Counted from the first letter of the stretch, positions 1,233 through 61,990 are shown. The stretch is 64,000 bases of DNA from a virus (IMGVR_UViG_3300033120_000461:9283-73282); one strand, 5' to 3'. Notes: generated by a model from the sequence alone, not told the origin. Program-made: numbers and translations.

Positions 1233-1265
1233 TTGTTGCTGATGGGTTGAGTCAGCACACCATTT
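1233..1265 (-). repeat. dispersed stem-loop repeat, copy 1
   Basis: Minus strand AAATGGTG-TGCTGA-CTCAACCCA-TCAGCA-ACAA; intergenic. Confidence 0.85.
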
Positions 1266-1279
1266 GTAACGAGAAGTAT

Positions 1280-1297
1280 ACCTCACTCACAGATAGG
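1280..1297 (-). promoter_or_regulatory. CCTATC candidate late-promoter element
   Basis: CCTATCTGTGAGTGAGGT is nearly identical to 21570-21588. Confidence 0.4.
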
Positions 1298-1327
1298 TGC
1301 GAGCAAAATGGTCACTAGAACGACGGC

Positions 1328-1603
1328 TCAACCGTTAGAGGCCCTACCCAGAAAAGTCCTTCGAATAAATCTCACATTCGAAATGGGTTCACGGGGTTCT
1401 TCTACCAATCCTAGTCTTTGAGCATCTGAGCAGGAAGACTTACCTGGACAACTCTTCCGACTGGGGCATCTCAAACACAATCGAATCAAAGCAGCCTCTC
1501 TTTTTAGAAGAGAGGTAGCAGGGATGTACTCCGCTACAGAGGTCTTTAGGCGAGCCCTGGCCGCTTGAAACTCAGATTCATAGTCCTTCAGCACGGAACC
1601 CAC
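1328..1603 (-). CDS. hypothetical protein
   Basis: Abuts upstream ORF; GTG start with GAG upstream; CxxC motif. Confidence 0.55.
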   Translation of the reverse strand: MGSVLKDYESEFQAARARLKTSVAEYIPATSLLKREAALIRLCLRCPSRKSCPGKSSCSDAQRLGLVEEPREPISNVRFIRRTFLGRASNG

Positions 1604-1888
1604 TCACTTCTTAACTAGGTGAAGTAGGGGGGGGAGAAAGCCAGGTCTGGAAGCCATACGTGTACGTCTAGCTTCCAAAAGCAAAGCCCGAGCAGCATCT
1701 TCTGATGAAGCCGTTGCTCCTCGAAGAATGTTTACTGCATCGGCCAAGTCTGTTTGAGACTTTGAAGCAGCCCGAGTCAACTGATGTCGGATGGTGTCAT
1801 CACCCTCCCTCTCACGTCTACGTCGAACTGCTTCAGACTCCTCTTCGACTACACGGATTTTTGGGGTTCGGGGGCTCTTTTCGCTCAT
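1604..1888 (-). CDS. hypothetical helical protein
   Basis: ATGA overlap with upstream gene. Confidence 0.7.
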   Translation of the reverse strand: MSEKSPRTPKIRVVEEESEAVRRRREREGDDTIRHQLTRAASKSQTDLADAVNILRGATASSEDAARALLLEARRTRMASRPGFLPPLLHLVKK

Positions 1889-2280
1889 GGTCTTCTCCGA
1901 ATGTCATCACCAATTTCCCGCATTGTGTCACGCACCTCGATGAGGGCCTCCTTGTTCTGGCCAAGGAGTTGAGCAATGTTGGTCATTGATGTTGTGGCTT
2001 GCTTCGTGAGATCTACCAGCTGAGCCTGGTAGGATTTTGCGTCATCAATCCGAAGCTGTTGAAGACGCTCAATGGCCTGCATGTAAGCTGCATGCTCATG
2101 CGCTCTGTGCTCTTCGTACTTTCTTCTCTCCTCGTCCCGAGAGGCCAGAAGTTCTTTCCGTTCCTTGCTCCATTCTCGATACAGGTACCCAATCACCCAG
2201 CCAAAAACTATGACTAGGATCCCCAGTATCCCGTACTGAAAGAGGCGTTCAACGGAACCTGTGATTACCTGATCTGGCAC
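1885..2280 (-). CDS. putative holin-like protein (single N-terminal TM + coiled coil)
   Basis: YGILGILVIVFGWVIGYLY hydrophobic helix followed by a charged coiled coil, BhlA/UviB-like architecture; GGGAG SD. Confidence 0.55.
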   Translation of the reverse strand: MPDQVITGSVERLFQYGILGILVIVFGWVIGYLYREWSKERKELLASRDEERRKYEEHRAHEHAAYMQAIERLQQLRIDDAKSYQAQLVDLTKQATTSMTNIAQLLGQNKEALIEVRDTMREIGDDIRRRP

Positions 2281-2332
2281 TGATTCTAGCTCCCGTGATT
2301 CAAGCTACTCTCAACCCAGAGGTATCGGAAAG

Positions 2333-3214
2333 TTAGGGAGACAGGGCTGAAGGTTCGATATTGAAGTCCTTTTGAAGTTTAGCCCAATCGAACTTGAACC
2401 CACTCCCTGTCCAATCCACATACCGCATCCCAATCACAAAGGATAGCCGAGCAACCAGAGCGATTGGCAGGAAGGTGAATGTGCCTGACCCCAAGGTCAT
2501 GTTGATCAATAGCCCAAGAACACTTCCTGGGAGACTCGACAGGAGATCAAACAACGATAGCTGCCCGCTCAAAGCTTCCAAAAGAGACTTCAAGTCCCAC
2601 TCAAACTCTGCGACGTTCACCCAGATGAAGATGTAGATGCCGACCAACACGACCTTGCTGATCGTAGGAACACGTTCCTTCAACCACAGGTCGAATTGCT
2701 CAACATGAGGTTTCACATGAGACCCAATGAACTTCTCGAAACTGGGGGATACCTTCATCAGTCTTTCCAGAATCGAGTTGACACTGAACAACTTTGATTC
2801 TGGCAGCGTGAAGAGCTTCATTGGAAGCGTCTGAAAGATGTGGTGCATGACCTTCTTCAAGGCCCCCATTCCGTCTTTAGCTAGTTCCTTCAGCTTTTCC
2901 GGTAGTTGACCGAGTGACTCAACTCCAAGGAACTCCTTCACACGACCCCAGAGTTTTGGGAACTTCGTGGCAGACATCACAATCTGCTTGAACTTTCGAA
3001 GCAGGTTTCCCACACCCGCTACATGCATCACACTCTCCAGGAATAGGCTTTCACCCATAGCTACAAGAGCCCTCTCCAGAGGTCGTCTAGCACTTGCTGT
3101 TCGACCATATGAGGAACACGCAAGACGAGCTGCATTCCGAATGTGAGTTCGGGCAACGACTCGTGACACCATCCCTTCTTGGAGAGTCTGGGAAATCATC
3201 TCAGAAGGTTTCAT
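2333..3214 (-). CDS. putative membrane-associated virion protein
   Basis: 293 aa with C-terminal hydrophobic segments; ATGA-coupled to upstream structural gene. Confidence 0.6.
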   Translation of the reverse strand: MKPSEMISQTLQEGMVSRVVARTHIRNAARLACSSYGRTASARRPLERALVAMGESLFLESVMHVAGVGNLLRKFKQIVMSATKFPKLWGRVKEFLGVESLGQLPEKLKELAKDGMGALKKVMHHIFQTLPMKLFTLPESKLFSVNSILERLMKVSPSFEKFIGSHVKPHVEQFDLWLKERVPTISKVVLVGIYIFIWVNVAEFEWDLKSLLEALSGQLSLFDLLSSLPGSVLGLLINMTLGSGTFTFLPIALVARLSFVIGMRYVDWTGSGFKFDWAKLQKDFNIEPSALSP

Positions 3215-6354: not shown

Positions 6355-6356
6355 GC

Positions 6357-48183: not shown

Positions 48184-48191
48184 TCGAATCC

Positions 48192-48323: not shown

Positions 48324-48860
48324 TCATTTCTGCTTACTCTTTGAGACACTTTTTTTTGAAGCTCTCTTTTTTTTGGTTTCTTGGACAGTGCCTTTTGGTT
48401 TCCCTCTGGGAGTAGTGAACGCTGCGTTCCCCCAACCAAGACGGATCCTGGCAAGCAGTCTGTCGTAAGAGATCTTCAGCTTCCGAGCCCAAGCTCTCTT
48501 GGTGCGGAGAACCCCATCGACCATGACCATATGGTCAGCATGGCTGTTTAGCCCTTGATTCTGTTGTGACGCTGTCTGCCAACTACACTCTCCGGGGCCA
48601 TAGTCACTGAAAGGAGTGAGACGTCCTATGGTCTTGTTCGCAGGTCGTTCACCCATGTCCTGGAGGAAGTTCTCAAACTTGCGCCACCTCTCTACGACAC
48701 AAACTCCAGCTCCCCCGTAGTTTTCGTAAGAGGGATGCTTCTTGTCGCAGCACCTTTGGATCATGGCTCTCCACGTGGTGTACGTGGGAGACTCTCTCCG
48801 ACCATCCTCACGCATGGTGCGATGGCCATGCAAGTGACTCGGGTGCCTATTCTTCTTCAT
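48324..48860 (-). CDS. HNH homing-endonuclease-like protein, possibly degenerate
   Basis: TWRAMIQRC..YENYGG.G..V.ERW..FENFLQDMGERP is the typical lead-in; core reads TIGRLTPFSDYGPGECSW instead of (T/S)(L/I)DRIDN...Y.P.NCRW. Confidence 0.8.
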   Translation of the reverse strand: MKKNRHPSHLHGHRTMREDGRRESPTYTTWRAMIQRCCDKKHPSYENYGGAGVCVVERWRKFENFLQDMGERPANKTIGRLTPFSDYGPGECSWQTASQQNQGLNSHADHMVMVDGVLRTKRAWARKLKISYDRLLARIRLGWGNAAFTTPRGKPKGTVQETKKKRASKKSVSKSKQK

Positions 48861-49704
48861 CGAAACCCAGAAGTCCCCCAAGACTTGTTGGGGCGCTAAC
48901 AACTTGAGGTGTCACAACCTCCTCCCACACACCACCTCTCTTTGGGAGCGTGAAGATTTCCCCGAGAGGAGCAAGACGTTCTTTTGCTACCTCCAAGGAC
49001 TTGGGGGATATGTCGCAGCCAGCAAAGGACCGGCCGGACTTCAACGCAGCTTCACCACAAGATGCAGATCCCATGAATGGGTCAATCACCAGGTCTCCTG
49101 GATTGCTGGAGTTTTCGATCAGGGTTCGTAGGAGTGAGACGGGCTTCTCAGTTGGGTATGCCTTATCCACTCTCGGTGCAGGGAGAACATCAGGCCACCC
49201 CAGATGGTTGAGTTTCCGCTTTCCCTTTTCAAGGAAGGAGATCTCCTCCTTCGAGTTCCGCCAATGGTACCCCATACCAATCTTGACATCATCCTCGGAC
49301 AGTTCCTTTTCAGGATCAATGACCTCGCCATCGTCCTTCCCACATACCTTCACCCATGAAAGACTCTTCCAGAAGACAAACCCAGCCTCACGGCCCATGG
49401 GCCTGACCACATCGATCATGGTCTCTTGGTCAGAAATCATGTAGAGATGGGAGTTCTTCTTCAGAACACGGTAGATTTCTGAGAGCAGTTCAGGAACCCT
49501 ATGGTTCCTGAAGATCTCGAACCATTCGTTCGAGGAGCCATCACTGACCTTCAGTCGAGTCGTGGTTCCCTTACTCCGATGCTTCTCCAAGCTCTCATAT
49601 GCGTAGTCCGTGACACACAAGTCTACACTCTCATCTGGTAGAGTTTTCAACCACGCCACGCTGTCCATTTGAGTGAGTGAGAACTTGGAAGGTTTATCAG
49701 TCAT
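48847..49704 (-). CDS. beta-class N4/N6 DNA methyltransferase
   Basis: Motif IV-like TDYAY N-terminal, YPTEKP, motif I DPFMGSAS C-terminal; AGGAG SD. Confidence 0.9.
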   Translation of the reverse strand: MTDKPSKFSLTQMDSVAWLKTLPDESVDLCVTDYAYESLEKHRSKGTTTRLKVSDGSSNEWFEIFRNHRVPELLSEIYRVLKKNSHLYMISDQETMIDVVRPMGREAGFVFWKSLSWVKVCGKDDGEVIDPEKELSEDDVKIGMGYHWRNSKEEISFLEKGKRKLNHLGWPDVLPAPRVDKAYPTEKPVSLLRTLIENSSNPGDLVIDPFMGSASCGEAALKSGRSFAGCDISPKSLEVAKERLAPLGEIFTLPKRGGVWEEVVTPQVVSAPTSLGGLLGFDEEE

Positions 49705-49719
49705 TGCTGTCTCCTAGAA

Positions 49720-49787
49720 TGGACCTTGACGGAATCGAACCGCCACCCCCGCCAATGCAGGGACGCTCCCAAAATAAGCCTAGGCCC
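49720..49787 (-). tRNA. tRNA-like element (Ala-type G3:U70 acceptor, degenerate anticodon arm)
   Basis: GGGCCT/AGGTCC acceptor + A73, GGCGG-TTCGATT-CCGTC T arm, GCTT/GAGC D stem; no canonical 5-bp/7-nt anticodon arm; no encoded CCA. Confidence 0.55.
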
Positions 49788-49808
49788 TAGAAACCTCAAA
49801 CTTAGCCT

Positions 49809-50072
49809 ATGAAAAATCCACACTGGTTCGTGTACGTCTTGCAAGGTTCTGGAAAGCCCGTGTTCTACACGGGCTGCACCACAGACCTATCCAGAAGGAT
49901 TCTCCAACACAATGGAAAAATGGAGGGAGGAGCAAAGTTCACCAGACAATACCGACCTTGGGTAGTGGCTAAGATCTACGGACCCTTCCCCGATAGAAGT
50001 GCTGCTCAGAAGGCTGAGTACAAAGTGAAGAGACTTCGAGGCCCCAAGAGACTCCAATGGTCAGGGCTTTGA
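49809..50072 (+). CDS. minimal GIY-YIG nuclease (Slx1/UPF0213-like)
   Basis: FVYVL..FYTGCTTDLSRRILQHNG..GGAKFTR..RPW..AAQKAE. Confidence 0.9.
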   Translation: MKNPHWFVYVLQGSGKPVFYTGCTTDLSRRILQHNGKMEGGAKFTRQYRPWVVAKIYGPFPDRSAAQKAEYKVKRLRGPKRLQWSGL

Positions 50073-50163
50073 TTCTGGTTGGTCTGGTTGGCTGCAACTC
50101 TTTGGTACTGGTTGCGTGGCAAGGAGACCCGTTGGGGGAGGTCTTTGTTGAGTTTGGTTGTCA

Positions 50164-50529
50164 TCAACCGAACTCAACCCGAGTCAAGAAGAGCACGCCA
50201 TTTTCAATCCTGGCTTGTCTCTTCTCGATATTCTCTGGTGGTGGGCTGTAGGTGTCCTCATCTACTGTGGCATTCGCATTCGTCTGAGGTACTTCCGTAC
50301 CCACACGGCCAGGACCACGCTTGTTGACCACACGAACAAGGGCATTGAACTCCAACTGACGATCTCGATCGAACGTCCAGCAATGGCGCCCTTTCCTCTG
50401 CTTTGTGGCCTTGTTGTCGAACTCCGAATGCCAAGCAATCACGCTTCGTACAATGGAACCCAAAGGGCTCTCTTTCCAGACAACACCATTGGAGGCCAAG
50501 ACCTCAACACCACAGAAGGCACATTTCAT
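50164..50529 (-). CDS. hypothetical Cys/His protein
   Basis: CAFCG..WH..GRHC; convergent with GIY-YIG. Confidence 0.6.
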   Translation of the reverse strand: MKCAFCGVEVLASNGVVWKESPLGSIVRSVIAWHSEFDNKATKQRKGRHCWTFDRDRQLEFNALVRVVNKRGPGRVGTEVPQTNANATVDEDTYSPPPENIEKRQARIENGVLFLTRVEFG

Positions 50530-50538
50530 AGCTGAACC

Positions 50539-50934
50539 TCATTCCTTTTTTGCACACTCAGGTTTCCAGGTAAGCAAACCCTCTTCAGATGTACGCTGGA
50601 AACCATTTTTCAGGTAGAACCGTTTCTGATCTTCAGGATCCTCGCCATACCCACCAGGTGTGACAACCACCAGTTGTGGTGACTGCTCCCAAGCAGCCTT
50701 GAGTGCTGCCTGAAGAATCAGGCTACCTGCCCCTTGGCCTCTTCCAAAACTATGAGGCACGTTCACCCGATTGATGTACCAGCACTTCCCAGAGGTAGGC
50801 AATCCAGGTACCTTCAAAATCTCTGCATCAATGAGGGTCAGGGATGCGATGGCTAGACGATGACCTTTAACCAAGCTTGCCGAAACCTCCATATCGTTGC
50901 GGTTGACATGGACTGGTAGGGCAAGCTCATTCAT
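50539..50934 (-). CDS. GNAT-family acetyltransferase
   Basis: INRVNV..GRGQGAGSLIL (motif A) and RFYLKNGF. Confidence 0.85.
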   Translation of the reverse strand: MNELALPVHVNRNDMEVSASLVKGHRLAIASLTLIDAEILKVPGLPTSGKCWYINRVNVPHSFGRGQGAGSLILQAALKAAWEQSPQLVVVTPGGYGEDPEDQKRFYLKNGFQRTSEEGLLTWKPECAKKE

Positions 50935-51445
50935 GTGGATCGCCTTCATCAAGGGCACAGAAACAATCTTGCATGAGCGCTGACTGCTTCTGCACCTCAT
51001 CATCCTCTTCTGAAATGCGGAACCCATGAGAGGTCACTTCCACAGGAGTCATCTTACCCCCATTGTAGTCAAACACCCTCACGTTGCTGCGGTGGATGGT
51101 CTCTACCGTTGTGTAGCTGGTTCTCAACCGTAAGTTGGGTAGTTGGTTGAGCATGATGCACAGGGATAGCTCGCGCACCACCACGTCACTCTCTGTGAAC
51201 AGAAGCACAGGCCCATGAGTGCACCTCTCTACAGCGGCACGAGTTTCCCTCCGAGCTTGACGAACACTCAACGCGCCCGAGACTTCAAGAGAAACTCTGT
51301 TTTGCCCACGTGCGATGTCAACAAGTGGTGTACACAGCTTCTTCATCCCAAATACGATGACAAGCTGAGCACTCTCCAACGCCTCTCTTAGACTGCTGCT
51401 TGGTTTGTGTTCAGAAAACGTCCTGGTACCCATGGATTCAATCAT
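50927..51445 (-). CDS. hypothetical protein resembling the C-terminal part of an ABC/AAA_15-type ATPase
   Basis: LLFTESDVVVRELSLCIML resembles the ITTHSDYIIKELN H-loop region; no Walker A. Confidence 0.4.
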   Translation of the reverse strand: MIESMGTRTFSEHKPSSSLREALESAQLVIVFGMKKLCTPLVDIARGQNRVSLEVSGALSVRQARRETRAAVERCTHGPVLLFTESDVVVRELSLCIMLNQLPNLRLRTSYTTVETIHRSNVRVFDYNGGKMTPVEVTSHGFRISEEDDEVQKQSALMQDCFCALDEGDPHE

Positions 51446-52383
51446 CGTACGAGCTTACGGAAGGTGAGTGAGATGCGCCCATCACACTCAGTGTGGTGCT
51501 TTGGGATCTTGTGGAGGTGTGTGTCCTGATAACCACCTGGCATCACGAACAGACCACCTTGGGTCATGAGGTACTTTCCAGAGTCTGGGACATCACCCTT
51601 GTCGCCCCTCTTCTTGGTGTAGAGGTAGCGCTCCGCCCCAAACGAGATCACGGCAATCGGGTGTTGCAAGTCCTGCTCTGGCGAGTCATCAGCATGCCAA
51701 CCAAGGTGTTGGAAGCGGTCTTTGTAGTAGTTGAGTACGCATACGTTGTACTCTGTACCCCTCTGGTTGAGCTTCTCCATGATGGACAAAACCGCAGGGT
51801 GCATCTCTACCGCATGGTAAGTGTGGAGTGCTTCCCTTGTCTCGTTGTTGTTGCCATACGAGTACGACTGAGGCGCATTCTCCGAAGCCATGAAGCACTC
51901 ATCTCTGGGTGCAGAACGGTTCACCCAGGCTACCTCGTCACGAAGAACGGGGAAGAGGTTGAGTGTTACGAACTCTGGTTCGAATGTAGGGGTCGTCATT
52001 GGCAAGACTCTGGGGATGGGTAGATGGTTTTGAGCGATGTCGCTGAAGTCGATCTTGTATACAGAGAGCAACTTCAGATCAATATCCAGTTCGAGAACAT
52101 GAAGGAAACCACTTCGAATCGATGAATACAAGTCGAATTCAAGGAATTCGTCTTTTAGTATGTCAACATCCACCTGGGAGATGGTGGACACAAGAAAGAC
52201 CAGACAGTCCTTCAGGATGTTGCACATGTAGTACAGGTTCAGACCTTGAGGGGTCTGTGCGATGTAGATAACTGGCACCCCATCGTACTCGAATATGACC
52301 TCGTGAGGTTCATGTGCTTCGATACCCTCAAGAGGGTAGACCACGGCATCAGGCTTGAGGTGTGAACTACCTGAGTACATCAT
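51442..52383 (-). CDS. AlkB-like 2OG-Fe(II) dioxygenase with extra N-terminal domain
   Basis: LNYY..LGWHADD..IAVISFGAER..HLHKIPK..RISLTFR gives HxD..H and R..R; about 128 extra N-terminal aa. Confidence 0.9.
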   Translation of the reverse strand: MMYSGSSHLKPDAVVYPLEGIEAHEPHEVIFEYDGVPVIYIAQTPQGLNLYYMCNILKDCLVFLVSTISQVDVDILKDEFLEFDLYSSIRSGFLHVLELDIDLKLLSVYKIDFSDIAQNHLPIPRVLPMTTPTFEPEFVTLNLFPVLRDEVAWVNRSAPRDECFMASENAPQSYSYGNNNETREALHTYHAVEMHPAVLSIMEKLNQRGTEYNVCVLNYYKDRFQHLGWHADDSPEQDLQHPIAVISFGAERYLYTKKRGDKGDVPDSGKYLMTQGGLFVMPGGYQDTHLHKIPKHHTECDGRISLTFRKLVR

Positions 52384-52835
52384 TTGAGCAACGATCCAAA
52401 GCGATCAGGCAACTGGAGGTGCGCTGGCGTTGAGTCAAAGAACTTGCTGTTGAGGTACTGAGCGACCCCTTTGTTGTGGATGAGGATATCGCAACGAAAG
52501 ATCCCAGCTGCTTTTTCTTCCTCGGTCTGCTCGACGGCAATCACTTCCCATGCTGGGTGAAGGAAACGTTCCAACGTTGCCTTCACGGCATCATCGACAA
52601 TCTTAGTGTATGCGGCTTTGAACCGCTTCAACCTCGCCTTTGACCAAGCCCGCTTGAATGGCTGGCCAACACGAATCAAGTCGATTGTCTTCGCATCGAA
52701 GAACTTCGTGCGAGCAAGCTTACCTAATGCGAGTTTCAAGGCCTCAACATCTTGCTTTGAAGCATGGGTCCTACGTGCTTGACGCACACACCAATGCGCC
52801 AGCTTCGAATGCTTCACCCTACGAAATCGCTTCAT
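52380..52835 (-). CDS. basic hypothetical protein
   Basis: ATGA-coupled at both ends. Confidence 0.7.
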   Translation of the reverse strand: MKRFRRVKHSKLAHWCVRQARRTHASKQDVEALKLALGKLARTKFFDAKTIDLIRVGQPFKRAWSKARLKRFKAAYTKIVDDAVKATLERFLHPAWEVIAVEQTEEEKAAGIFRCDILIHNKGVAQYLNSKFFDSTPAHLQLPDRFGSLLK

Positions 52836-53350
52836 GGGTTCAACTTCATGCCACGCAGACCCATGTCCTTCAGAGCGAGGAATGCTTCAGCATTTCCCCG
52901 AGCGTCATCCACAGGGTCATGAGTGTGTTTGGTCTGTCGGAGGTGCTTGAAGTTCAGACTCATGTCCTTGACCAAGCCCTTGTAGAGAGAGCCAAGGTTT
53001 GTTGATGAGAACCCAAATGGGCAGCCTCCTGTGAAATGATGGAAGTACCAGCAGATGAACATCCAATCAAACCCGTTGTTGTCCGAGATGAATCTTGGGT
53101 TTGGGATCTGCTTCAACCATTCCCCAAATGCGGCCATCGAGAGACTGGGAGAAGGGAATGCAAGTGTCTCTTCTCGGGTGTGTCCACTGATGGACAGAGC
53201 CTTCGGGTCCCACTTATCCGAGATAGGGGCGAGCTTCCTTCCGAAAGACCTACGTAGGCCTGGCTCGACAACAACAGCCCCAAGAGAGATCATCGAGTAG
53301 TCCCCAGGAATGGGGCCATCGGCTTCAACATCAACCATTACGTATGTCAC
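52832..53350 (-). CDS. DEDDh 3'-5' exonuclease (Rv2179c/DUF5051-like)
   Basis: VDVEADGP, NNGFDW, HTHDPVDDA. Confidence 0.88.
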   Translation of the reverse strand: MTYVMVDVEADGPIPGDYSMISLGAVVVEPGLRRSFGRKLAPISDKWDPKALSISGHTREETLAFPSPSLSMAAFGEWLKQIPNPRFISDNNGFDWMFICWYFHHFTGGCPFGFSSTNLGSLYKGLVKDMSLNFKHLRQTKHTHDPVDDARGNAEAFLALKDMGLRGMKLNP

Positions 53351-53907
53351 GAGACCACCTTCTTGGGAGTTGGGACTGGAACATCAGCACACACGAACTT
53401 TGGCAAAAGACCCAGTGTCTTCGCAGCTTCAGTCATACGCACTGTGGCATCATCGAATGCCTGACTAACGTTTCGAAGCCCGAGTTCACACGCACAGTCT
53501 ACTTTGTACGTGATGAAGTCATGAATCGTGTGGTCTTTGCCAAACGGGGTTTTGCAGATTGGACACTCCACACGACTAGCGTCTCGAAGAGTGATGGCGA
53601 CATGGCGTTCGGTAGGCTTCGAGCAACCTTCCACAAGTGTCATTTTTGGGGCGAGCCAGTCAAAAGCGGCGTTAAAAAGCCTGGTGGAGGCTACCACCAA
53701 TTCTTTCGCCTCCACTTCTTCGAGTCGGAGAGGGCACCAATCAGGTGGAGAATTGGAAGAACCACCCAAAACAACGGGTCTTTCAGTCAAACTCCCGATT
53801 GGGGTTGGGTCTTTCTTGCAGTGTGCAGGAGCCCAGTAACTCCCATGGTCATCAATCCTACGTGCGTAGTGGGAACAATCGCTACAGGTCTTTGGAAGAG
53901 AGTTCAT
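53347..53907 (-). CDS. Cys-rich protein (PxxCPL domain + CPIC domain)
   Basis: CSDC..HC..PPDWCPL; ECPIC..DCAC; ATGA overlap at 53904-53907. Confidence 0.7.
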   Translation of the reverse strand: MNSLPKTCSDCSHYARRIDDHGSYWAPAHCKKDPTPIGSLTERPVVLGGSSNSPPDWCPLRLEEVEAKELVVASTRLFNAAFDWLAPKMTLVEGCSKPTERHVAITLRDASRVECPICKTPFGKDHTIHDFITYKVDCACELGLRNVSQAFDDATVRMTEAAKTLGLLPKFVCADVPVPTPKKVVS

Positions 53908-54374
53908 GATTCTCCTTGTAACGGTTGACCCAGGTCTTTTTCCGAGAGACGATCCTTCAACCTCTGGATTTCCCAAGTTTTCTCTACAAGAAGATCACTC
54001 AGCCTAAGGTTTTCCTGAGTCTTCTCTTCAAGGAGAACTTTTTGTCTCGCACAGGTCTTCTCCGCCTCCAAGAGTTCTTGGACCTTTTGGTCAAGACGAG
54101 ACTCAAGAGTCTCATAGGCAAAGTGGTCAACGAGAACGACCGAATCAAAGTGACCCATTCTCCGAGTAGCCCCTTGACCAACAAAGACTATCTGTGGTTT
54201 TGCCCCCTCGTTCGAGGGGTCCTCCGCTGAATTCCAAAGCTGAGAGAACGAGGCCCTATTTTGTCTTGCACTCTCCTCAGTGGCGCACACGAAGAGAACA
54301 CTCCGGCCAGACTTGAGGGTCTGAAGTGCAGCTTCGAGTACGACAGTTGTGCTTCCGGTCCTACGACTGGTCAT
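53904..54374 (-). CDS. degenerate P-loop-like domain + coiled coil
   Basis: SRRTGSTT (Walker A-like, K absent), VLFVC, VLVDH (Walker B-like). Confidence 0.55.
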   Translation of the reverse strand: MTSRRTGSTTVVLEAALQTLKSGRSVLFVCATEESARQNRASFSQLWNSAEDPSNEGAKPQIVFVGQGATRRMGHFDSVVLVDHFAYETLESRLDQKVQELLEAEKTCARQKVLLEEKTQENLRLSDLLVEKTWEIQRLKDRLSEKDLGQPLQGES

Positions 54375-55041
54375 TGGTTGGGTCCTGGCTTTGGGTCTCA
54401 ATGAGATGGAGGAGTTGCCTCAAGGCAGCATGGGCGTGAATCATCGCATTGGAGATCATGAGGCCCTCGGGTATTCCCTCAGAGTCATAGTCGAAGGCGC
54501 CATTGTATAGTTCAGTTTGGATCTCCTCCTTGGGAGTGCACCCAATAGAAGACAGAGCTTCTTCTAGGGCTTCAATCCGGCACTCCCGTTCCTTCGAAAC
54601 AGAATCAGACTCATCTTGTTCTTCTTCAGCCCTCGCCTCTTGGATGAGTTGCTCAATTTCTTCGCGGAAGACATCGTCATCGTCATCCCAGATAGTGCTT
54701 TTGGCAGTGCCTCCTATTGTCGCTTTCTGGACAAAGTAGCTGTCATCGGGGCGCTCTCTTTTGGCCATCCACCGAATGCAGTTGATTTGCTCCTCTTGCG
54801 AAGGCTCTGTCCCAAGACCCGAGGACTTCCACATGTATCTCCCGAAAATGACAGCTTGGATGTCCCCATGAACAAGCAAGTGGCCCCCTTCTAGGATAAC
54901 CACTTCAACCCAAAAGTTGGTTGACTTAGGATCCATCATGAGCCAGCGACCATGCCCACTCTTGGTGATGACATGATTCGAGAAATCCTCTTTACTCTGA
55001 AGGATGAGACCCCTCAGTTTTTCTTCAGACTTTGTAGGCAT
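54361..55041 (-). CDS. hypothetical phage protein
   Basis: LLVHGDI..YFVQKA pattern; likely start ATG 55041. Confidence 0.7.
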   Translation of the reverse strand: MPTKSEEKLRGLILQSKEDFSNHVITKSGHGRWLMMDPKSTNFWVEVVILEGGHLLVHGDIQAVIFGRYMWKSSGLGTEPSQEEQINCIRWMAKRERPDDSYFVQKATIGGTAKSTIWDDDDDVFREEIEQLIQEARAEEEQDESDSVSKERECRIEALEEALSSIGCTPKEEIQTELYNGAFDYDSEGIPEGLMISNAMIHAHAALRQLLHLIETQSQDPTNDQS

Positions 55042-55054
55042 TGAGGTCTCTTGG

Positions 55055-55312
55055 TCAGGATGCAGATTGGAAACGGATGGAGTGGATGACTGACTTCTGG
55101 CAGGCTTCAACTCGCTCATCTTCGTTGTTCCCGAACTGATTGTGTTTACGCCAGTTCGTGTAGGTCTGAACTTCAGTTCGGAGAATCTCCAGAGAGTTCT
55201 TGAAGTTCTCAGTGTTCTTGGCCTGTAGTGCTTCCCTAACAGAAAGGGTCAGCTTTTCGATGCGGACAACAAGTGCTTCTGGATCTTCGTTCAACGAAGG
55301 AGTCTCAGTCAT
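55055..55312 (-). CDS. hypothetical helical protein
   Basis: GAGG SD. Confidence 0.65.
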   Translation of the reverse strand: MTETPSLNEDPEALVVRIEKLTLSVREALQAKNTENFKNSLEILRTEVQTYTNWRKHNQFGNNEDERVEACQKSVIHSIRFQSAS

Positions 55313-55709
55313 GGCTCACCTCATTGGACTTCTTGTAGTCGGACAAGAACTTCTTGTATTCCTCTGACTCTCCTCCAAGTTTGCATCCAGTAATTGCTCG
55401 AACTATCCGGTCTACCACCCACGCTTGGTTTACTGTCCACCCTTTTGAATGCCCTTCAAAGCTCCCATATCGACGGGCAACACTGAGGGCCAAATCGATA
55501 CGACCTCTCAATTCCGCATCTGAGTCTGTGGGATCAACAACATCGATTCTGTAGTCGATTTCTTGACCTCCATTCATTCTTGGATCGTTAGTGGACTCAA
55601 TGCACCGATCCACAAATGATTTAGCCTTTTCAGGAGAATCAAACATGGCCTCCGCAGTGCCATCACAAACGTTGATGACAACGTATCGTTTGTCTGGGCT
55701 GGGGTTCAT
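55305..55709 (-). CDS. hypothetical protein
   Basis: YG..EG...WVVDRIVRAITG..EEY resembles a common phage family. Confidence 0.7.
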   Translation of the reverse strand: MNPSPDKRYVVINVCDGTAEAMFDSPEKAKSFVDRCIESTNDPRMNGGQEIDYRIDVVDPTDSDAELRGRIDLALSVARRYGSFEGHSKGWTVNQAWVVDRIVRAITGCKLGGESEEYKKFLSDYKKSNEVSHD

Positions 55710-56116
55710 ACAGGTACTTCTTGAGTCCCAGTCACAAGTTCAAATCTGAGTGCAGCCCTTGTCACCAAGGCTGAAACGTCAACAGGAACGAACTTTTGGA
55801 CGTACTTGTCCGCAACTTCATCCATTTCTGTGACGTCAACCACAAACCCATTGAGCTTCTTGGCTTCCTCCACAGCTTCTTTGACTGTGTCTTGCCAGCT
55901 TGTGCTCAAATCCCCGGAGACTCCACACATCCCTGAACCATCATCGTGTTCAATGGAAATCTGAACTCTGTACCAGAGGTCCCCCTCTGCAACAGGAGGC
56001 TCGATGGCCTCATTACGCTTCTGAGGACGGCACTCGACATGGGCTGTGAAAATCCAAGTTCCTACGATGAGTTCTTCCATCCCCCTTCTTACGCTCTGCC
56101 ATGGTTTTACCACCAA
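55706..56116 (-). CDS. hypothetical protein
   Basis: Coupled ORF; start uncertain. Confidence 0.6.
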   Translation of the reverse strand: MVVKPWQSVRRGMEELIVGTWIFTAHVECRPQKRNEAIEPPVAEGDLWYRVQISIEHDDGSGMCGVSGDLSTSWQDTVKEAVEEAKKLNGFVVDVTEMDEVADKYVQKFVPVDVSALVTRAALRFELVTGTQEVPV

Positions 56117-56382
56117 GAATTTTCTGGGGGCTCATCTGGCTTGGTTTCCTGAGTGGTTTGAATCTGGAACCCGCATCTTGGACATGAGGTGCAACAAGGC
56201 TTCTGGTGGGTCACGGTGACCGTGCTGTTCACGTATCTGTGACAGAAGCAGTTGCAAAGGATGTCATCATCATGGTTACGTAAAGTACACCTTGGAGGAA
56301 CGATAGTGGGGGCTGTTTTCCGAGTCCGCACTTCCTCTATGTGGATCTTCTTCGTGATTTCGTCATCCGAACTCATGGGCAT
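56107..56382 (-). CDS. Cys/His-rich small protein
   Basis: CNCFCH..H..PCC..CPRCG. Confidence 0.65.
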   Translation of the reverse strand: MPMSSDDEITKKIHIEEVRTRKTAPTIVPPRCTLRNHDDDILCNCFCHRYVNSTVTVTHQKPCCTSCPRCGFQIQTTQETKPDEPPENSWW

Positions 56383-56764
56383 CTAACTTCTGGTGTAGGG
56401 CTTCAGAAAGGAACTGGATTTGAGGTAGGACGAGTCGGTCAAATAAAACCATGAACGACCCCTCTACATCAGGGTCCCCTATCCAAGAAATAGACTCACC
56501 CAACTGTTCTACGATGCAAATCTTTCGCCTTGAGTTTTCAAACCCTTTGGTTTTCTCAGGTGGTAGAAACCAAAGCAAAGCTTGCACTCCCTGAATGGAC
56601 TCGCGAGCTACCCGAAGAGAACGCCATGTCTCAACCACCCTATGAGGGTCTAGGGAGGACCGCATCCGAACCTTTCGAGCCTCCTCTATTTGACTCAAAG
56701 CCAAAAGCAAGAGTGGTTTCGCAGCCTCTCTTGCTTTCAGTTCTCTTCTTGTGTCTGTGTTCAT
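56363..56764 (-). CDS. hypothetical helical protein
   Basis: ATGA overlap with the spike gene stop. Confidence 0.65.
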   Translation of the reverse strand: MNTDTRRELKAREAAKPLLLLALSQIEEARKVRMRSSLDPHRVVETWRSLRVARESIQGVQALLWFLPPEKTKGFENSRRKICIVEQLGESISWIGDPDVEGSFMVLFDRLVLPQIQFLSEALHQKLDAHEFG

Positions 56765-59211
56765 GTCGGAGAGAGTGTTTGCAGTCTGGGGACAAGTCCC
56801 AGTGAAGAATAGGTTAGACCTGTGAGAGGATCTCTGTCTGACCCTGCCATTATCCCACCATCAGGCACTCCAGGAGACACGAGCTTCACCCCAAGTGAAC
56901 CGTTGATGGTCACAGAACCAGTAACCGCACGCAGTGTTGCATTCATCTGCGCACTTGCCGAGAAGCTGCCAGAAGAGACTGTGGTTGAGGCATCACCTAC
57001 GGCAAGAGTTGTGTCAAGACCAGATGATGAGTCCAACACCATCTTGTTCTCAAGAGCCTTTGCTTCCCACTTCCCGAGCTTCGTCTCATAGAGGAAGTCA
57101 CCAAGGGTCAGTGTGGTTGTGTGCGAACCCTGAAGAGTAAATTCCTCTACTCGGTCTCCATACGTCATCGTGTAGGAGTCTGTCGTGCCTCCCGCATTTC
57201 CTGTACCTGGAGTGGCATTGATCTGGAAAGAGTTGCTAGGTCCGTTGGAGGGGTTTGCGTCCGATGGTCCAGATACCTGAGTCGACATGGACCCCGAAGC
57301 AGACAACGAGAGTTGTTGAGCTGAAAGATTGGCTCGCTGCCCTGAGGACATGGAAAGTGAACTTTGCGCTCTCAAATCAATCTGAGTCGCGTTTGTGATC
57401 TGCATCCTTGGCGAGTTGAGGACAATCTGTCCTGCACTCCTCACAGTGACATTGGAAGTCCCTTGGATGAGTACGGATGGAGCAGAACCACCGCTTGAAC
57501 TTGAGGGGTCCGCATCCGAAGCTGCTGAAGCCCCTGCTATGGAACCACCTCCAAAAATCGAGACTCCCCCACTAGCTGATGTAAGAGAGACACCTACATT
57601 CCCAGCACCTGGGGCAGCATCCACTGCAAAACCACCCCCTGTTGTGAATCCCACACCTCCACCAGCTTCGACTCTCAACCCACCTCGAAGTGCAACCTCT
57701 CCTGATGTATCAGGACCAGCGATATAAGCCTTGAGGCGTGAATCCTTCGTGAAGGAGACAAATGAAGCAGGGCCTGAACCAAAGGCTGGGGAGACCTTCA
57801 ACAGGGTTGCGGCATGGTCTCGTAGACGAGCGCCAACACCCGAGACTAGACCAGGAGCAACTCCAGTATTCCCAGCCCCAAAGACCATTGGTAGTAATGG
57901 CAGGCCGTAGAGAGGTCGACCTTGGAGAGAGAACGGGTCATTGCCAACCACAGACCCAAGTACCCACTCAACAAATGGGACGGAACCAGACCCGCCAAGG
58001 GGGTTCCCGTCTGTAGGGGTCTGGGTGGGGAGACGCTCTGCGTCAAAACCGTCTGTCTGTTCTGTGACTGGAAGCAGTCCCTTTGTCGAGTGGGTTACTT
58101 CCACACGGTATTCAGAGAGAGAATCCGAAGTAGACTCGTCTGAGTTTGGGGAGGCGTAGGCATTTGTGACGCCCAATACAGGTACATCACCACCTGGAAG
58201 AACGCCTACTCGGTACAGGGACTTTCCGCCATACACGACATCTGGAGTAGTCCTTCCATCAGTGCGAAACCCTCGGCTGTCTACAAAAGATCCCCACTGA
58301 AGGAAATCGAATGGGTCCAGCCGGTTCTCAAAATCTTCCCCAACTTCTGTCTCGAAGTTGGATGGGCCCGAAGAACTCCGTTCAAAGATCAACCCAGGAG
58401 TCAGGAATCCAACAGGGTATGGGCTTACTCCAAGATTGTCTGCGGAGACAGGATTCTGCTCCACGTCCACCTGAGGTATCGGGCTATCCCAATACGTACC
58501 GTCAGAGAAGACAGTGCTTGGGAGCAACCTAGCTTCTCTCTGGACTGGGCCTGAGTAAACACGAGTTCCTGCTTGGGCATGGAACTCCGCAACACTTCGA
58601 ATGATGACCGAAGTATCTGCGTCTCGTAGTCGAATCTCTGCTCCTCTTCTGTTTACAAGAAGAGCATCCTCGTTCAAGACCAGATCAGAACCGCCTGAGG
58701 ACGAGGCTAGAATGTCTCCTGGACCCATAGCACGAAGCTTGAAGCGTACCCTTTCGGCTAGGCCTGTGGCGATGCTTCGTTCACGTGGAGTGTCAAGGCC
58801 TTCTCCGGGTCCAAAGCGAGCAAATGGGAGCCACTCTTTGCCCATCCAAGGAGCTGGGGGGATCCACCCAAGAATGATGGGAGTTCGAGTGCTGGCAGTA
58901 CCACTAGACTCACGGGCAGCCCATCCAACGAGGCACAAGTCTCCTCGTTCAGGCATTGCCCCAAAGAAATGGCGTCGACCCCCTCCAGGAAGAGTGAGAT
59001 CGACGCCAGTGTACTCGAAGAGGTCTGCCTCACCAGTCAGAGTGATGAGGGTGCACTTGAAATCCTCATATTGAATCTCTTTGACTCGACACACAGACAG
59101 GCCGAGTTCAGCCCAGTTTTTCGAAGGATTGGAAGCATTGACCTCGCCTCCGCGCATACCTGCACGAAGTTCCCCCGTTGAAATGTGTCCTCTTAGAGAT
59201 TCTCCAGCCAT
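56761..59211 (-). CDS. baseplate central spike (T4 gp5/P2 gpV/VgrG-like)
   Basis: N-terminal OB-fold RV..I......MPERGDLCLVGW; C-terminal short-period Gly/Ser/Thr beta-helix-like repeats. Confidence 0.8.
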   Translation of the reverse strand: MAGESLRGHISTGELRAGMRGGEVNASNPSKNWAELGLSVCRVKEIQYEDFKCTLITLTGEADLFEYTGVDLTLPGGGRRHFFGAMPERGDLCLVGWAARESSGTASTRTPIILGWIPPAPWMGKEWLPFARFGPGEGLDTPRERSIATGLAERVRFKLRAMGPGDILASSSGGSDLVLNEDALLVNRRGAEIRLRDADTSVIIRSVAEFHAQAGTRVYSGPVQREARLLPSTVFSDGTYWDSPIPQVDVEQNPVSADNLGVSPYPVGFLTPGLIFERSSSGPSNFETEVGEDFENRLDPFDFLQWGSFVDSRGFRTDGRTTPDVVYGGKSLYRVGVLPGGDVPVLGVTNAYASPNSDESTSDSLSEYRVEVTHSTKGLLPVTEQTDGFDAERLPTQTPTDGNPLGGSGSVPFVEWVLGSVVGNDPFSLQGRPLYGLPLLPMVFGAGNTGVAPGLVSGVGARLRDHAATLLKVSPAFGSGPASFVSFTKDSRLKAYIAGPDTSGEVALRGGLRVEAGGGVGFTTGGGFAVDAAPGAGNVGVSLTSASGGVSIFGGGSIAGASAASDADPSSSSGGSAPSVLIQGTSNVTVRSAGQIVLNSPRMQITNATQIDLRAQSSLSMSSGQRANLSAQQLSLSASGSMSTQVSGPSDANPSNGPSNSFQINATPGTGNAGGTTDSYTMTYGDRVEEFTLQGSHTTTLTLGDFLYETKLGKWEAKALENKMVLDSSSGLDTTLAVGDASTTVSSGSFSASAQMNATLRAVTGSVTINGSLGVKLVSPGVPDGGIMAGSDRDPLTGLTYSSLGLVPRLQTLSPT

Positions 59212-59217
59212 TGTATT

Positions 59218-59240
59218 TGACTCCTGTCTACGGGAGACAA
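59218..59240 (-). promoter_or_regulatory. SD-occluding hairpin with CGTAGAC loop
   Basis: TTG-T-CTCC-CGTAGACA-GGAG-T-CAA; GGAG is the spike gene SD. Confidence 0.45.
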
Positions 59241-59245
59241 TACGG

Positions 59246-59276
59246 TTGTTGTTGAGGTTGGGTCAACACACCCATT
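59246..59276 (-). repeat. dispersed stem-loop repeat, copy 3 (U-A variant, 7-nt loop)
   Basis: AATGGGTG-TGTTGA-CCCAACC-TCAACA-ACAA. Confidence 0.8.
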
Positions 59277-59285
59277 GTTATCAGA

Positions 59286-59675
59286 TCACAAGTAGGTGAT
59301 CGCGGCCACGTTGATGCAGAGATGCAAGATGTTGTCTGCCAAGATCAACAACCATCCTGCAAGCCAATCAGGCTTGTCAGTCTTGTACCCATGCCATCCA
59401 GCCTCACTCAGTGAGTACCTGTACTTGGCAGGACCCAGTTGGTTCTTTGCCCAAACAATGTACCGAGCCACCCTGAAGTGATCGATTACGGCGTGTGTGG
59501 CCCAGATGACCAAGAGAGCCATTGGTGAGCGAGTCACTACCAGATGGGGCAACGTGTAAACGAACGCATGCCACTGAGCGACGTAGAAGTTTTTGGTCTT
59601 CTCTGAGGCCATGTGGTCGGTCTGTAGAAGGTAGTCCCCTACGCCATGACAAAGAAGGATCAGAAGTCCAAGCAT
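59286..59675 (-). CDS. DUF3307-like membrane protein
   Basis: CHGVGDYLLQT..MA..K, HAFVY, THAVIDHF, ADNILHL. Confidence 0.85.
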   Translation of the reverse strand: MLGLLILLCHGVGDYLLQTDHMASEKTKNFYVAQWHAFVYTLPHLVVTRSPMALLVIWATHAVIDHFRVARYIVWAKNQLGPAKYRYSLSEAGWHGYKTDKPDWLAGWLLILADNILHLCINVAAITYL

Positions 59676-59688
59676 GTCGACTCAACTT

Positions 59689-60117
59689 TCATTTCTCACC
59701 CACATTTCTCACCCACAGGTTCTTCCTGAGAGGGCATTCTGCTGGAGGTAGCTTTGTAGGCTTTCCAGTAGAAAACTTGTCCTCCCTCTCAATGGCCTCA
59801 GAATGGGTTTCCAAAGCGATGCCTTTTTTAGTGTGGTCACCCACCACACTAGCTGAGGGGTGGGAACAAAGGAGCCTTTGAATGCGCTTGGGGTTGTCCC
59901 GGTAATTGTCAGGTATTTCCTCCATCACCAGTGATGAACAATCTCCGCAACTTTGAATCACCACAAGAGACACAAGCTTACTCTCAGCTTGTGGTGTTGG
60001 ATCTGGGGCAAGGATTTGGACGAATTTGAAAAGAGACTTGACGAGTAAGTACAAAGCCCCTATCGAGACCAGAAGCCACACAAGAGCCTTGAGAAAGATG
60101 AGAGGATCATCGGTCAT
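59689..60117 (-). CDS. membrane-anchored Cys-rich protein (PxxCPL family)
   Basis: N-terminal TM helix; SCGDC..LCSHP..PPAECPL. Confidence 0.7.
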   Translation of the reverse strand: MTDDPLIFLKALVWLLVSIGALYLLVKSLFKFVQILAPDPTPQAESKLVSLVVIQSCGDCSSLVMEEIPDNYRDNPKRIQRLLCSHPSASVVGDHTKKGIALETHSEAIEREDKFSTGKPTKLPPAECPLRKNLWVRNVGEK

Positions 60118-60122
60118 CGATG

Positions 60123-60422
60123 CTACTCCTGATCAAAGTTCTCGTTGAAATCCTGGATCTCGAAGCTGAGCACGTAGGGGAACGTGTCGTAATCCTGAAG
60201 TTCAAGGAGCGCACACCGCACGCACCCTCTTGTTGCATTGCTGAAGTCCTGGTCTGAACAAGAGGTCCTATTGTGCACCACGAACGACAAGAGAGCTGGT
60301 AGGGCCTTCCGCACCAATTCTACTCTGGCATCCTGTTTGGCTTTTCGGGCGTCACGACGCTCTTGCGCACGACGATTGAGTTCTCCCCGAAGTTCGTCCT
60401 CAGTAGCTTTCTTCAAGTTCAT
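60123..60422 (-). CDS. hypothetical protein with C-terminal Cys motif
   Basis: GAGG SD; H..TSCSD..CVRC. Confidence 0.7.
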   Translation of the reverse strand: MNLKKATEDELRGELNRRAQERRDARKAKQDARVELVRKALPALLSFVVHNRTSCSDQDFSNATRGCVRCALLELQDYDTFPYVLSFEIQDFNENFDQE

Positions 60423-60430
60423 TTGTAACC

Positions 60431-60787
60431 TCAGCCCTTACATCCAGTAGGGATCGTGTCGTCGAAGTGTTCGTGTTGTTCGCCCACAGTCTCGAAGTGG
60501 TCAAAACGACCATCCAAAGCAGCAAGTCGAAGCATGATGTTGGTGCCTGGTCCGAGTTGGTTTGCCACCCACCCTACACAAGCCACCTCAGAACCAACTT
60601 CTGACTCATGGCAAGCCATGGCAGATGTGACCTGGAGAGGGCTGGTAGCAATCGTACGTCGAAGGTTGGCGTGTTTCTCCACACAGTATCCGCCTGGAAT
60701 ATCTTCCAAGGGCTTGACGGACTTCTTCCAAGGGCAAGCCTTGCATTGCTTACCTAGAGCAGCTGGAATCTTTTTTGGTTCCACCAT
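60431..60787 (-). CDS. DUF6283-like Cys/His protein
   Basis: CKACPW, MACH, CVGW..N..LRL; AAGGAG SD before ATG 60787. Confidence 0.7.
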   Translation of the reverse strand: MVEPKKIPAALGKQCKACPWKKSVKPLEDIPGGYCVEKHANLRRTIATSPLQVTSAMACHESEVGSEVACVGWVANQLGPGTNIMLRLAALDGRFDHFETVGEQHEHFDDTIPTGCKG

Positions 60788-60788
60788 C

Positions 60789-61436
60789 TCACTCCTTTGA
60801 GGTATCAGGAAGCAAAGGGATGCCTGAACCCAGCAAAGCCGAGGATCCTGATGAGATACGCAAGAAGGTAGAGGAGATATTCTCTGGCTCAAGGAGATTC
60901 TTCAAGGTTTCCCGTGCCTTTTTGAGGGAATCGTTGAAAGCCAAGAGTACAGCACGGTTCTCTTCTGTGTCTGGAATGAGTGCCGCCGAGCCCCATTCGG
61001 CATCAGCCTTCCGTTCTACTGGCCATTCATCTCTGACTACGCCAGGACTCCCATTGAAGAAACCCTTCGACTTTCTGTGGATTTTCTTCCCGTTATGTGT
61101 GGCCAGATCGAAGATCTCCACAGTGATCGACAAGTCACAGACAGAGTCACTATGGTCAGCCCGACCCATGTCCAATTCACGTCCAGAGGACCTCACGTAA
61201 AGATGACGTTCCCACTTGATCGTTGACCTCTCCTTGACGAGAGCCTTTGCTGCTGTTGTGAGAGCATCAAGGTCAATGCCCTCCATCTCCACGTTGACGA
61301 TGTCACAGACAGCAACAAACAGGGGTTTGATGCCATCTCTGCGAACGAGGTAGAAATCAAGGGCTACATATCCACTGTCTGTCCACACCTGAAAGGTGTC
61401 GATCTTCTTTCCGTTCTCAACTCGCTTCTTGGCCAT
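60789..61436 (-). CDS. hypothetical protein
   Basis: 215-aa ORF in a coupled cluster. Confidence 0.75.
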   Translation of the reverse strand: MAKKRVENGKKIDTFQVWTDSGYVALDFYLVRRDGIKPLFVAVCDIVNVEMEGIDLDALTTAAKALVKERSTIKWERHLYVRSSGRELDMGRADHSDSVCDLSITVEIFDLATHNGKKIHRKSKGFFNGSPGVVRDEWPVERKADAEWGSAALIPDTEENRAVLLAFNDSLKKARETLKNLLEPENISSTFLRISSGSSALLGSGIPLLPDTSKE

Positions 61437-61467
61437 TTAGCCCTACTTTCTTTTGGGACTGCGACAC

Positions 61468-61863
61468 TCAGAGAGGTCGCACCTTTTCGGCTTTCTCAGC
61501 CTTCTGCTTGGCTTGATCACTCCGACCCTGATCGATCTGAGTGATACGAGTTTCGAGTTCCTGGATAGTCTCTTCCAGGGACGATGTCGTATCCTTCCGG
61601 AAGTCTTCTACACGAATGCTTTGCGAGAGTTCATCCAGTCCAGAAACCCAGCCCAAGGACCTCTTGCACACAGTCAAGACGGCCAACAATCGAGCCTTAC
61701 TCGAAGTCTTCTGTGCTCCAGTGTAGCTGGAAATGCTGGAGTGGTAGGCTGCCAGTCGCAACGCTATTCTTTGCCACTTCTCTGATTCAGCACGGACGAG
61801 TCGAAGCTCGGACTCAAGATCCTTGAACTGCTGACTCTTCTCATTCTCGTTGATCTCAGACAT
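61468..61863 (-). CDS. coiled-coil hypothetical protein
   Basis: GGAGG SD. Confidence 0.75.
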   Translation of the reverse strand: MSEINENEKSQQFKDLESELRLVRAESEKWQRIALRLAAYHSSISSYTGAQKTSSKARLLAVLTVCKRSLGWVSGLDELSQSIRVEDFRKDTTSSLEETIQELETRITQIDQGRSDQAKQKAEKAEKVRPL

Positions 61864-61956
61864 GGTGTCTCCTCCCTCTGGTAACGAGTAGCGTGGTTTC
61901 TTTTCCCCTATGTTGTACTGAGCAGACTCCTACGCCTCTTGAGCCGAGTCGTGGAG

Positions 61957-61990
61957 TTGTCGCTGAATTGTAGGGTCAGCACACCCATTT
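61957..61990 (-). repeat. dispersed stem-loop repeat, copy 5 (U.G variant)
   Basis: AAATGGGTG-TGCTGA-CCCTACAAT-TCAGCG-ACAA, directly after a stop codon. Confidence 0.85.

Follow-up and report, generated by a model that had tools for sequence, protein, structure and literature searches.

A stretch of viral DNA, IMGVR_UViG_3300033120_000461:9283-73282 (64,000 nt; hereafter the window), carries near-identical hairpin sequences of about 33 nt dispersed among its genes, which raises the question of whether they act in RNA on neighbouring genes or are DNA that spreads on its own account. An initial annotation, made from the sequence alone, had proposed a cis-acting site coordinating accessory operons or driving gene shuffling. 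Comparison with near-identical strains shows that the hairpins behave like a discrete unit of DNA that comes and goes, and that this unit is found in unrelated settings and in either orientation, both intergenically and in frame within genes. The reading to which we give an even chance of being correct is that of a miniature palindromic repeat, private to one phage lineage, that resembles the repetitive extragenic palindromic (REP) sequences and the Rickettsia palindromic elements (RPE), spreads and is lost at the level of DNA, needs its hairpin for propagation and has any effect in RNA as a secondary matter. The record in IMG/VR comprises 73,282 nt, of which the window is bases 9283-73282, and is rated 14% complete.

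Copies of the hairpin in the window and in sister strains

The window holds six copies, designated c1, c2, c3a, c3b, c4 and c5, that conform to TGYGYTGA-N7-9-TCARCRAC on the minus strand (Table 1), and a degenerate pattern run over the entire record found just these. In outline, a head AAATGG(G/A) precedes the first arm, TGYGYTGA; a C/A-rich loop, which has 7 nt in c4 and 9 nt otherwise, separates this from the second arm, TCARCRAC, and a tail AA(G) follows. With the gap fixed at 9 nt and one mismatch allowed, 5 matches were obtained against 0.04 expected in shuffles; the plus strand of the record and a reversed-pattern control each gave none. A covariance model (R1) built from the six copies found no further copy in the window when searched with filters off at E<=10. 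The positions, strand and loop lengths (7 or 9 nt) given in the initial annotation were borne out by reading of the sequence and by the pattern search, as was a frequency above that of shuffled sequence. The degenerate copy that it also listed was not: its stem is broken, the covariance model gave no match there at the same setting, a plus-strand site fits the pattern equally (2 mismatches) and the ORF232 segment that holds it is entirely absent in sister strains.

Table 1. Hairpin copies and associated features, in coordinates of the window (ORF, open reading frame).
Feature	Coordinates	Strand	Remarks
c1	1233-1265	-	9-nt loop; 50.9 bits; in 98-nt gap of convergent ORFs 1328-1603 (-) and 546-1229 (+)
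c2	45068-45101	-	C-G outer pair; translated in frame in the C-terminal tail (last 25 codons) of ORF 45019-45441 (ORF140)
c3b	48192-48225	-	56.7 bits; 3' tail reaches into the ribosome-binding site of gene 47859-48182
c3a	48228-48263	-	Tandem with c3b, 36-nt period; without AAATGG head; 30.7 bits
c4	59246-59276	-	7-nt loop; U-A third pair; stop of ORF 59286-59675 9 nt upstream, start of gene 56761-59211 35 nt downstream
c5	61957-61990	-	U.G outer pair; 3 nt past the stop of ORF 61993-62331
Doubtful degenerate copy	43162-43187	-	Overlaps the stop of ORF 43180-43878 (ORF232); 2 mismatches to pattern; stem broken
Separate longer hairpin	48293-48316	-	CTGAG...CTCAG arms; just past the stop of the HNH endonuclease gene; may be a distant relative of the family
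Unoccupied site in ORF 1328-1603	1385-1405		Occupied in sister strains by an in-frame antisense copy of 33 nt
HNH endonuclease gene	48324-48902	-	Directly upstream of tandem copies c3a/c3b; resident in three strains regardless of copy number

Four of the window copies are intergenic and lie close behind stop codons. The distance of window copies from the upstream stop ranges from -51 to +67 and that to the next start from 12 to >200. ORF232, ORF140 and a 199-aa ORF of sister strains (ORF199) each end in or at a copy, the element's own TGA terminating ORF232. Over all strains the unit measures ~31-36 nt with a stem of 6-8 bp and was seen at about 10 loci.

DNA of sister strains was obtained by exact protein look-ups and then searched with the covariance model; all data are assembled contigs, and the public contigs compared over 43000-62990 came from strains 90-99% alike. 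Occupancy varied among strains 87-97% identical, nearly every copy being polymorphic for presence or absence, and neighbouring genes persisted where a copy was missing. Contig L031 keeps c3b and lacks c3a, the difference being a clean segment of 33 nt, and the X4 contigs skip 33 nt at 48225-48259. In L030 both c3 copies are lost, a fused head and tail remaining with the downstream ribosome-binding site and gene intact. Copy c1 is absent in L033 and L034, where the gap holds unrelated sequence. Copy c2 is present in L032, and in L031 a 30-nt in-frame deletion between GC..CT microhomologies removes it; its 5' edge is marked by a 9-nt in-frame indel, and the ORF stays open in all three strains. 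Most of the c2 core was also missing from public contigs compared over this region. Copy c4 is kept in L027-L030 with a single loop change. At the site of c5, 61908-61984 is replaced in three sister strains (listed as L028/L029/L030/L041) by ORF199, which ends inside a copy of its own, and the left breakpoint falls immediately after the AATGG head.

Sister strains also carry copies on the opposite strand. The homologue of ORF 1328-1603 (ORF91) contains, in L033, L034 and P0139, a 33-nt opposite-strand copy that is in frame, adds 11-12 residues and is absent in this genome; a second antisense copy follows directly after the stop of an SNF2 gene ~5 kb past the record's end in a sister strain. 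Contigs from other runs either matched in the element only, with both flanks diverging, or contained two or three copies in tandem, of which the middle one was truncated. A CRISPR-like array in the two-copy contigs was considered and rejected since the supposed spacer is a truncated copy. Two indels correspond to exactly the 33-nt unit (c3a and ORF91), and both of these clean units have the 5' tail CGTG(GG) instead of AAATGG(G/A). The element accounts for 4 of the roughly nine short indels (20-45 nt) in ~55 kb of aligned sequence. Copies are oriented with transcription at 8/10 loci, and the initial description of the family as strand-oriented thus holds within the window and fails in the sister strains, with their two antisense copies.

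Read in the GTG/CTG register, all six window copies give x-V/A-L-T/I-Q-x-L-S-N/D-K. This common open frame corrects the earlier view that indels break any shared peptide frame. The companion claim that conservation is at the level of nucleic acid is upheld because the coding copies use three different frames: c2 in the GTG-CTG register, the ORF199 copy one base over and the ORF91 copy on the opposite strand. ORF140 with c2, ORF91 of L033 and ORF199 of L028 all remain open with their in-frame copies, and copies within ORFs were seen only in C-terminal tails or in frames free of stops. No ribosome-binding site was found before the ATGs of the copies, though genuine genes here have strong ones. 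We therefore give almost no credence to a repeated peptide module (x-V-L-T-Q-P-L-S-N-K), which the shared frame would favour and the three coding frames, one of them antisense, and the missing ribosome-binding sites oppose, or to a palindromic duplex operator for a dimeric protein, for which the arms do form an inverted repeat but whose rigid site would not predict an arm spacing of 7-9 nt and compensated stems. Copy c2 (window 45062-45130) and the ORF199 copy (L028 7250-7310) share ~55-65 nt, beyond the 33-nt unit, yet are translated in different frames. Read-through of stop codons by an amber suppressor was rejected, the stops beside copies being TGA.

Stem conservation and possible roles in RNA or transcription

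The 6-bp stem was paired in 36/36 cells of the alignment of six copies, the outer pair being C-G in c2 and U.G in c5 and the third pair U-A in c4; column shuffles paired equally well in 25/500 cases. RNAalifold placed two more invariant pairs across a bulged A. When the 12 distinct rows from all strains were aligned, 97.9% of cells paired, covariation was confined to the same two pairs and one copy showed an A.G mismatch. The U-A variant of the third pair was found both in c4 and in the ORF91 copy, the latter with a 9-nt loop. These results agree with the stem covariation noted initially, pairing having survived two double changes and a wobble. The hairpin energies of -6.6 to -9.3 kcal/mol (z -0.2 to -1.9 relative to shuffles) are thermodynamically ordinary, and folding is about equal on either DNA strand. 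Thus, the case for structure is made by compensation in the stem and not by stability.

The reading favoured by the initial annotation was a cis-acting RNA hairpin, that is, a 3'-end stabiliser, a processing site or a protein-binding site that travels with accessory genes. It would explain why all window copies are on the coding strand, most of them 0-70 nt behind a stop codon, and why the U.G pair of c5 is one that is valid on the sense strand only; the conserved unpaired head, tail and loop would suggest a sequence-specific binder, and published REPs can act as RNA elements (PMC3733652). We nevertheless regard it as unlikely: sister strains hold two antisense copies, copies are lost with neighbouring genes and ribosome-binding sites kept, the hairpin is weak, lacks a U-tract and folds no better than shuffles, the spacing to stops (-51 to +67) and starts (12 to >200) is variable, and no Rfam family corresponds to it. 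The contigs from RNA libraries (X9; X5 may be DNA) are uninformative on transcript ends, and parts without cover say nothing.

Coordination of operons in particular was not supported, given the copies missing beside intact flanking genes and ribosome-binding sites, the antisense and in-frame copies, and the position of c1, which has nothing downstream to promote or regulate because it lies at a convergent gene junction. Of the proposed cis-acting site, the hairpin conserved as nucleic acid and its setting in a region of gene shuffling are retained, and the strand-oriented RNA coordinating operons is not. Two observations that the initial annotation had named as counting against its own reading were made in part, namely copies on both strands inside coding DNA and none beyond the lineage.

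Bacteriophage N4 uses hairpin promoters for its virion RNA polymerase that have a 5-7 bp stem and a 3-nt loop, are essential and stand only upstream of early genes. A hairpin or bipartite promoter of this kind, recognised by an RNA polymerase encoded by the phage, could be imagined here from a short, conserved hairpin of ~33 nt with conserved flanks in a region of small genes, 12-94 nt upstream of several starts, in a phage with a giant ORF (3599 aa) whose size recalls the N4 enzyme. The idea is very improbable. The loop is 7-9 nt rather than 3, c1 faces a convergent gene, copies are sometimes antisense or inside ORFs and are dispensable in sister strains, the giant ORF shows no polymerase family and the contractile-tail baseplate is unlike N4.

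Proposed propagation of the unit and comparison with known repeats

The element has much in common with REPs and with REPINs, which contain them. Like these it is an imperfect palindrome of 20-40 nt, one end of which bears a short, conserved, single-stranded tail (PMC3733652, PMC3116915). REPs are 20-40 bp long and occur behind genes, where neighbouring ORFs run in one direction or converge, and sometimes inside genes (PMC3733652); the copies described here are likewise found mostly behind genes in such settings and now and then within them. REP and REPIN families are also species-specific, polymorphic in occupancy and form clusters by insertion beside existing copies, and excision of a REPIN as one unit has been demonstrated (PMC3116915). 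Unlike REPs, the element lacks the GTAG/CGTC tag, its 5' tail being AAATGG(G/A) or CGTG(GG); it resides in a phage genome in low copy number (about 10 loci seen), combines a weak, AT/GC-mixed stem with a long C/A-rich loop, and no REP-associated tyrosine transposase (RAYT) flanked by copies was found in the ~130 kb covered of the ~0.5-Mb genome of the lineage. It occurs singly or in direct tandem, whereas a REPIN is an inverted doublet. Since GTAG/CGTC tags are absent and neither a RAYT nor another candidate enzyme was found in those ~130 kb, the element is not filed as a REP but only as working like one.

Rickettsia palindromic elements, as summarised in PMC10969869, insert in frame and add a peptide without breaking the ORF, and also occur between genes. 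The copies in ORF140, ORF91 and ORF199, all of which remain open, are likewise compatible with the protein. An RPE, however, is ~100-150 bp long and encodes a conserved peptide, whereas the element spans 11 codons (33 nt), for which three frames are used. The analogy to REPs drawn in the initial annotation, and that to the phage cassettes treated below, pointed in the right direction.

Small dispersed repeats of cyanobacteria, reportedly described by Elhai et al. in 2008, are said to be ~21-27 nt long and mobile-looking, with no known enzyme, and often nested or adjacent; sequence and host differ from those of the element, and the comparison serves as a lead rather than a test.

If the element does propagate as a REP-like repeat, a unit of ~31-36 nt (short 5' tail, 6-8 bp stem, C/A-rich loop of 7-9 nt and AC(AAG) tail) would spread by copying to other sites, and disappear again, in the hyperplastic accessory region of a huge-phage genome. 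The single-stranded hairpin exposed in replication or recombination intermediates would be what a trans-acting, structure-specific enzyme recognises, which would explain the compensated stem changes and the recurrence of the U-A variant in two copies. An HUH protein of the RAYT/IS200 type or some other nuclease would fit, its gene lying either in another part of the ~0.5-Mb genome or in the host. Copies would survive only where harmless, that is, behind stops, in C-terminal tails and in stop-free frames, and may be lost through slippage between short direct repeats that flank the hairpin. Being dispersed stretches of homology, copies may also serve as breakpoints for cassette replacement, and whatever the transcribed hairpin does to mRNAs nearby is predicted to be secondary.

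Several findings weigh against this proposal. The Pfam and PHROG matches of the window and the precomputed Pfam matches of ~70 kb of sister-strain flanks, which together bring the lineage coverage to ~130 kb, included no transposase, RAYT or other candidate enzyme. The junctions revealed neither a target-site rule nor a target-site duplication. No outgroup for ORF91 was found by which to polarise the clean indels, the sole further homologue belonging to the same lineage and holding the insert, and each polymorphism could in principle be a loss. The ~55-65 nt shared by c2 and the ORF199 copy fit patchy recombination better than a transposon with fixed ends, co-orientation with genes at 8/10 loci is not predicted for purely selfish DNA unless insertion is strand-specific, and covariation is limited to two pairs among related rows. 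Template switching and slippage in a highly recombinogenic phage stand as an alternative that would require no enzyme, and are favoured by the extension of the c2/ORF199-copy homology past the unit. A bolder version of the proposal is that the single 33-nt hairpin is a complete mobile unit, moved in either orientation by a structure-specific enzyme other than a RAYT and adding 11 codons where it enters genes, such that a phage counterpart of REPs would remodel proteins and seed cassette exchange; we offer this tentatively and think it unlikely.

The promoter early stem-loop (PeSL) cassettes of RB49-like T4-type phages consist of a consensus sigma-70 promoter and a strong G/C stem-loop terminator (PMC2839356, PMC4122927). 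Like them, the element is gathered in a hyperplastic region of a large myovirus that is rich in ORFs of no known relatives (ORFans) (PMC2839356, PMC4122927), and a cassette flanked by the repeat in one strain corresponds to a single repeat in another. The family might accordingly be a recombination module, a dispersed patch of homology, possibly served by a dedicated recombinase, that swaps accessory cassettes and is kept because it promotes shuffling. The c5 site, single in one strain and represented by an ORF with its own copy in others, with the left breakpoint at the AATGG head, argues for such a module, as do the ends of ORF232, ORF199 and ORF140 in or at a copy, the homology of c2 and the ORF199 copy beyond the core, and a region full of gene-sized indels and homing endonucleases. 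We consider it distinctly unlikely all the same, inasmuch as no copy borders the gene-sized indels 45472-47376 and 60794-61440, the clean 33-nt indels carry no gene with them, evolvability is only weakly selected for and the defining parts of a PeSL, the sigma-70 promoter and the strong terminator stem, are absent (PMC2839356). Only c4 and c5 give 9/12 matches to a sigma-70 promoter, in different registers; the hairpin is no better than shuffles and has no T-run; and PeSLs are not reported in frame inside genes as the element is. A sigma-70 promoter within the element was rejected as the registers are inconsistent. Indels without the hairpin at their borders comprise the replacement of ORF232 by 82 nt (43131-44001), a missing block of five ORFs (45472-47376), missing ORF215 (60794-61440) and a 282-nt in-frame deletion (53426-53707).

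Beyond the lineage the family was not encountered. Rfam at its gathering score gave 0 matches in the window, which bears out the initial impression that this is not a described family, and the strict pattern gave 0 matches in IMG/VR. Among metagenome contigs of JGI the pattern matched twice, with approximately one chance match estimated by hand; both matches are ordinary bacterial coding sequence, judged by eye as one HPr-like C-terminus and one signal-peptide-like stretch. The single match in GTDB genomes lies in a repeat-protein gene of an Akkermansia metagenome-assembled genome and was taken as chance, and no host REP family was found there. The relatives G001-G005 and L036-L039 (37-80% protein identity, among them those at 75-80%) yielded no copy by pattern or covariance model, and orthologous intergenic sites in relatives hold unrelated sequence. 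Further copies outside the window, whose lack the initial annotation had named as counting against its reading, were found only within the same lineage. A family private to this lineage is a conclusion that we hold jointly with the REP-like reading, and with the same evenly balanced confidence.

The phage genome and the meaning of the repeat

The window is a fragment of a huge phage with a contractile tail, an assignment based on hundreds of homologues of an 816-aa protein on contigs of 200-530 kb and on the genes for a contractile-tail baseplate. The genes include those for Baseplate_J and sheath-initiator proteins, an ADP-ribosylglycohydrolase, a DNA methylase, a 2OG oxygenase and an HNH endonuclease, along with many ORFans. 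Related phages reach 485 kb, and the genome of the lineage was taken as ~0.5 Mb, of which the window and the sister-strain flanks (~130 kb) represent about a quarter. The G+C content of 52% compares with 60-64% in relatives with 37-80% identity in the 816-aa protein. This protein, encoded at 56761-59211 (-) and adjoining c4, is a handy marker of the clade, with >475 homologues on contigs of huge phages measuring up to 530 kb; some homologues are tagged PF10106, JGI labels some as RecA/RadA-family recombinase, and an exact look-up returned a 4-kb contig only.

The 3599-aa ORF at 32331-43130 (-) has 93.6% nucleotide identity in sister strains and starts directly after a strain-variable cassette; it had zero Pfam or PHROG matches, and no polymerase family was detectable in it. 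The cumulative GC skew reaches its maximum at ~38000-42000, with minus-strand genes on both sides, and this may be a replication landmark. The biggest non-coding gap of the region is 49705-50163 (459 nt). ARAGORN called no tRNA in the window. Beyond the record's start, the sister-strain contigs L042/L043 encode an RRM_1 RNA-binding protein, an RNA ligase, a PTH2-like protein, Thy1, a RecA-like protein, MT-A70 and Dam-like methylases and a collagen-repeat protein.

Homing endonuclease genes (GIY-YIG, HNH) vary among the near-identical strains, being found at 840-1652 and 12405-13373 of L030, at 1009-2160 of L032 and as the HNH gene of the window (Table 1); the GIY-YIG genes of sister strains occupy sites that are empty in this genome. 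A link between homing endonucleases and the hairpin was rejected, as the HNH gene is resident regardless of copy number and the GIY-YIG genes of sister strains have no adjoining copy. The relative G001 (L019), with 64% G+C, has a conserved motif of its own, ~35 nt long, 20-30 nt upstream of four genes (~41863, 44858, 50823 and 54043), which is possibly a phage promoter; the CCCAATC core of the element's loop is the only part that the two have in common.

Dispersed repeats of the REP type have been described for bacterial chromosomes, and in phages only PeSL cassettes were found to be comparable in limited literature searches. Here, near-identical strains catch a 33-nt hairpin being gained or lost as a unit behind stops, in tandem, antisense and in frame in proteins. 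Conserved, covarying hairpins of phages should not be read as regulatory RNAs before sister strains have been checked. If the 33-nt hairpin is indeed a mobile unit, it would be close to the lower size limit for mobile DNA. Should an enzyme move the repeat, huge phages would have in it a minimal mobile element and a means of diversifying small proteins and reshuffling accessory genes; should there be no enzyme, the family would present a clean natural case of hairpin-driven indel and recombination hot spots.

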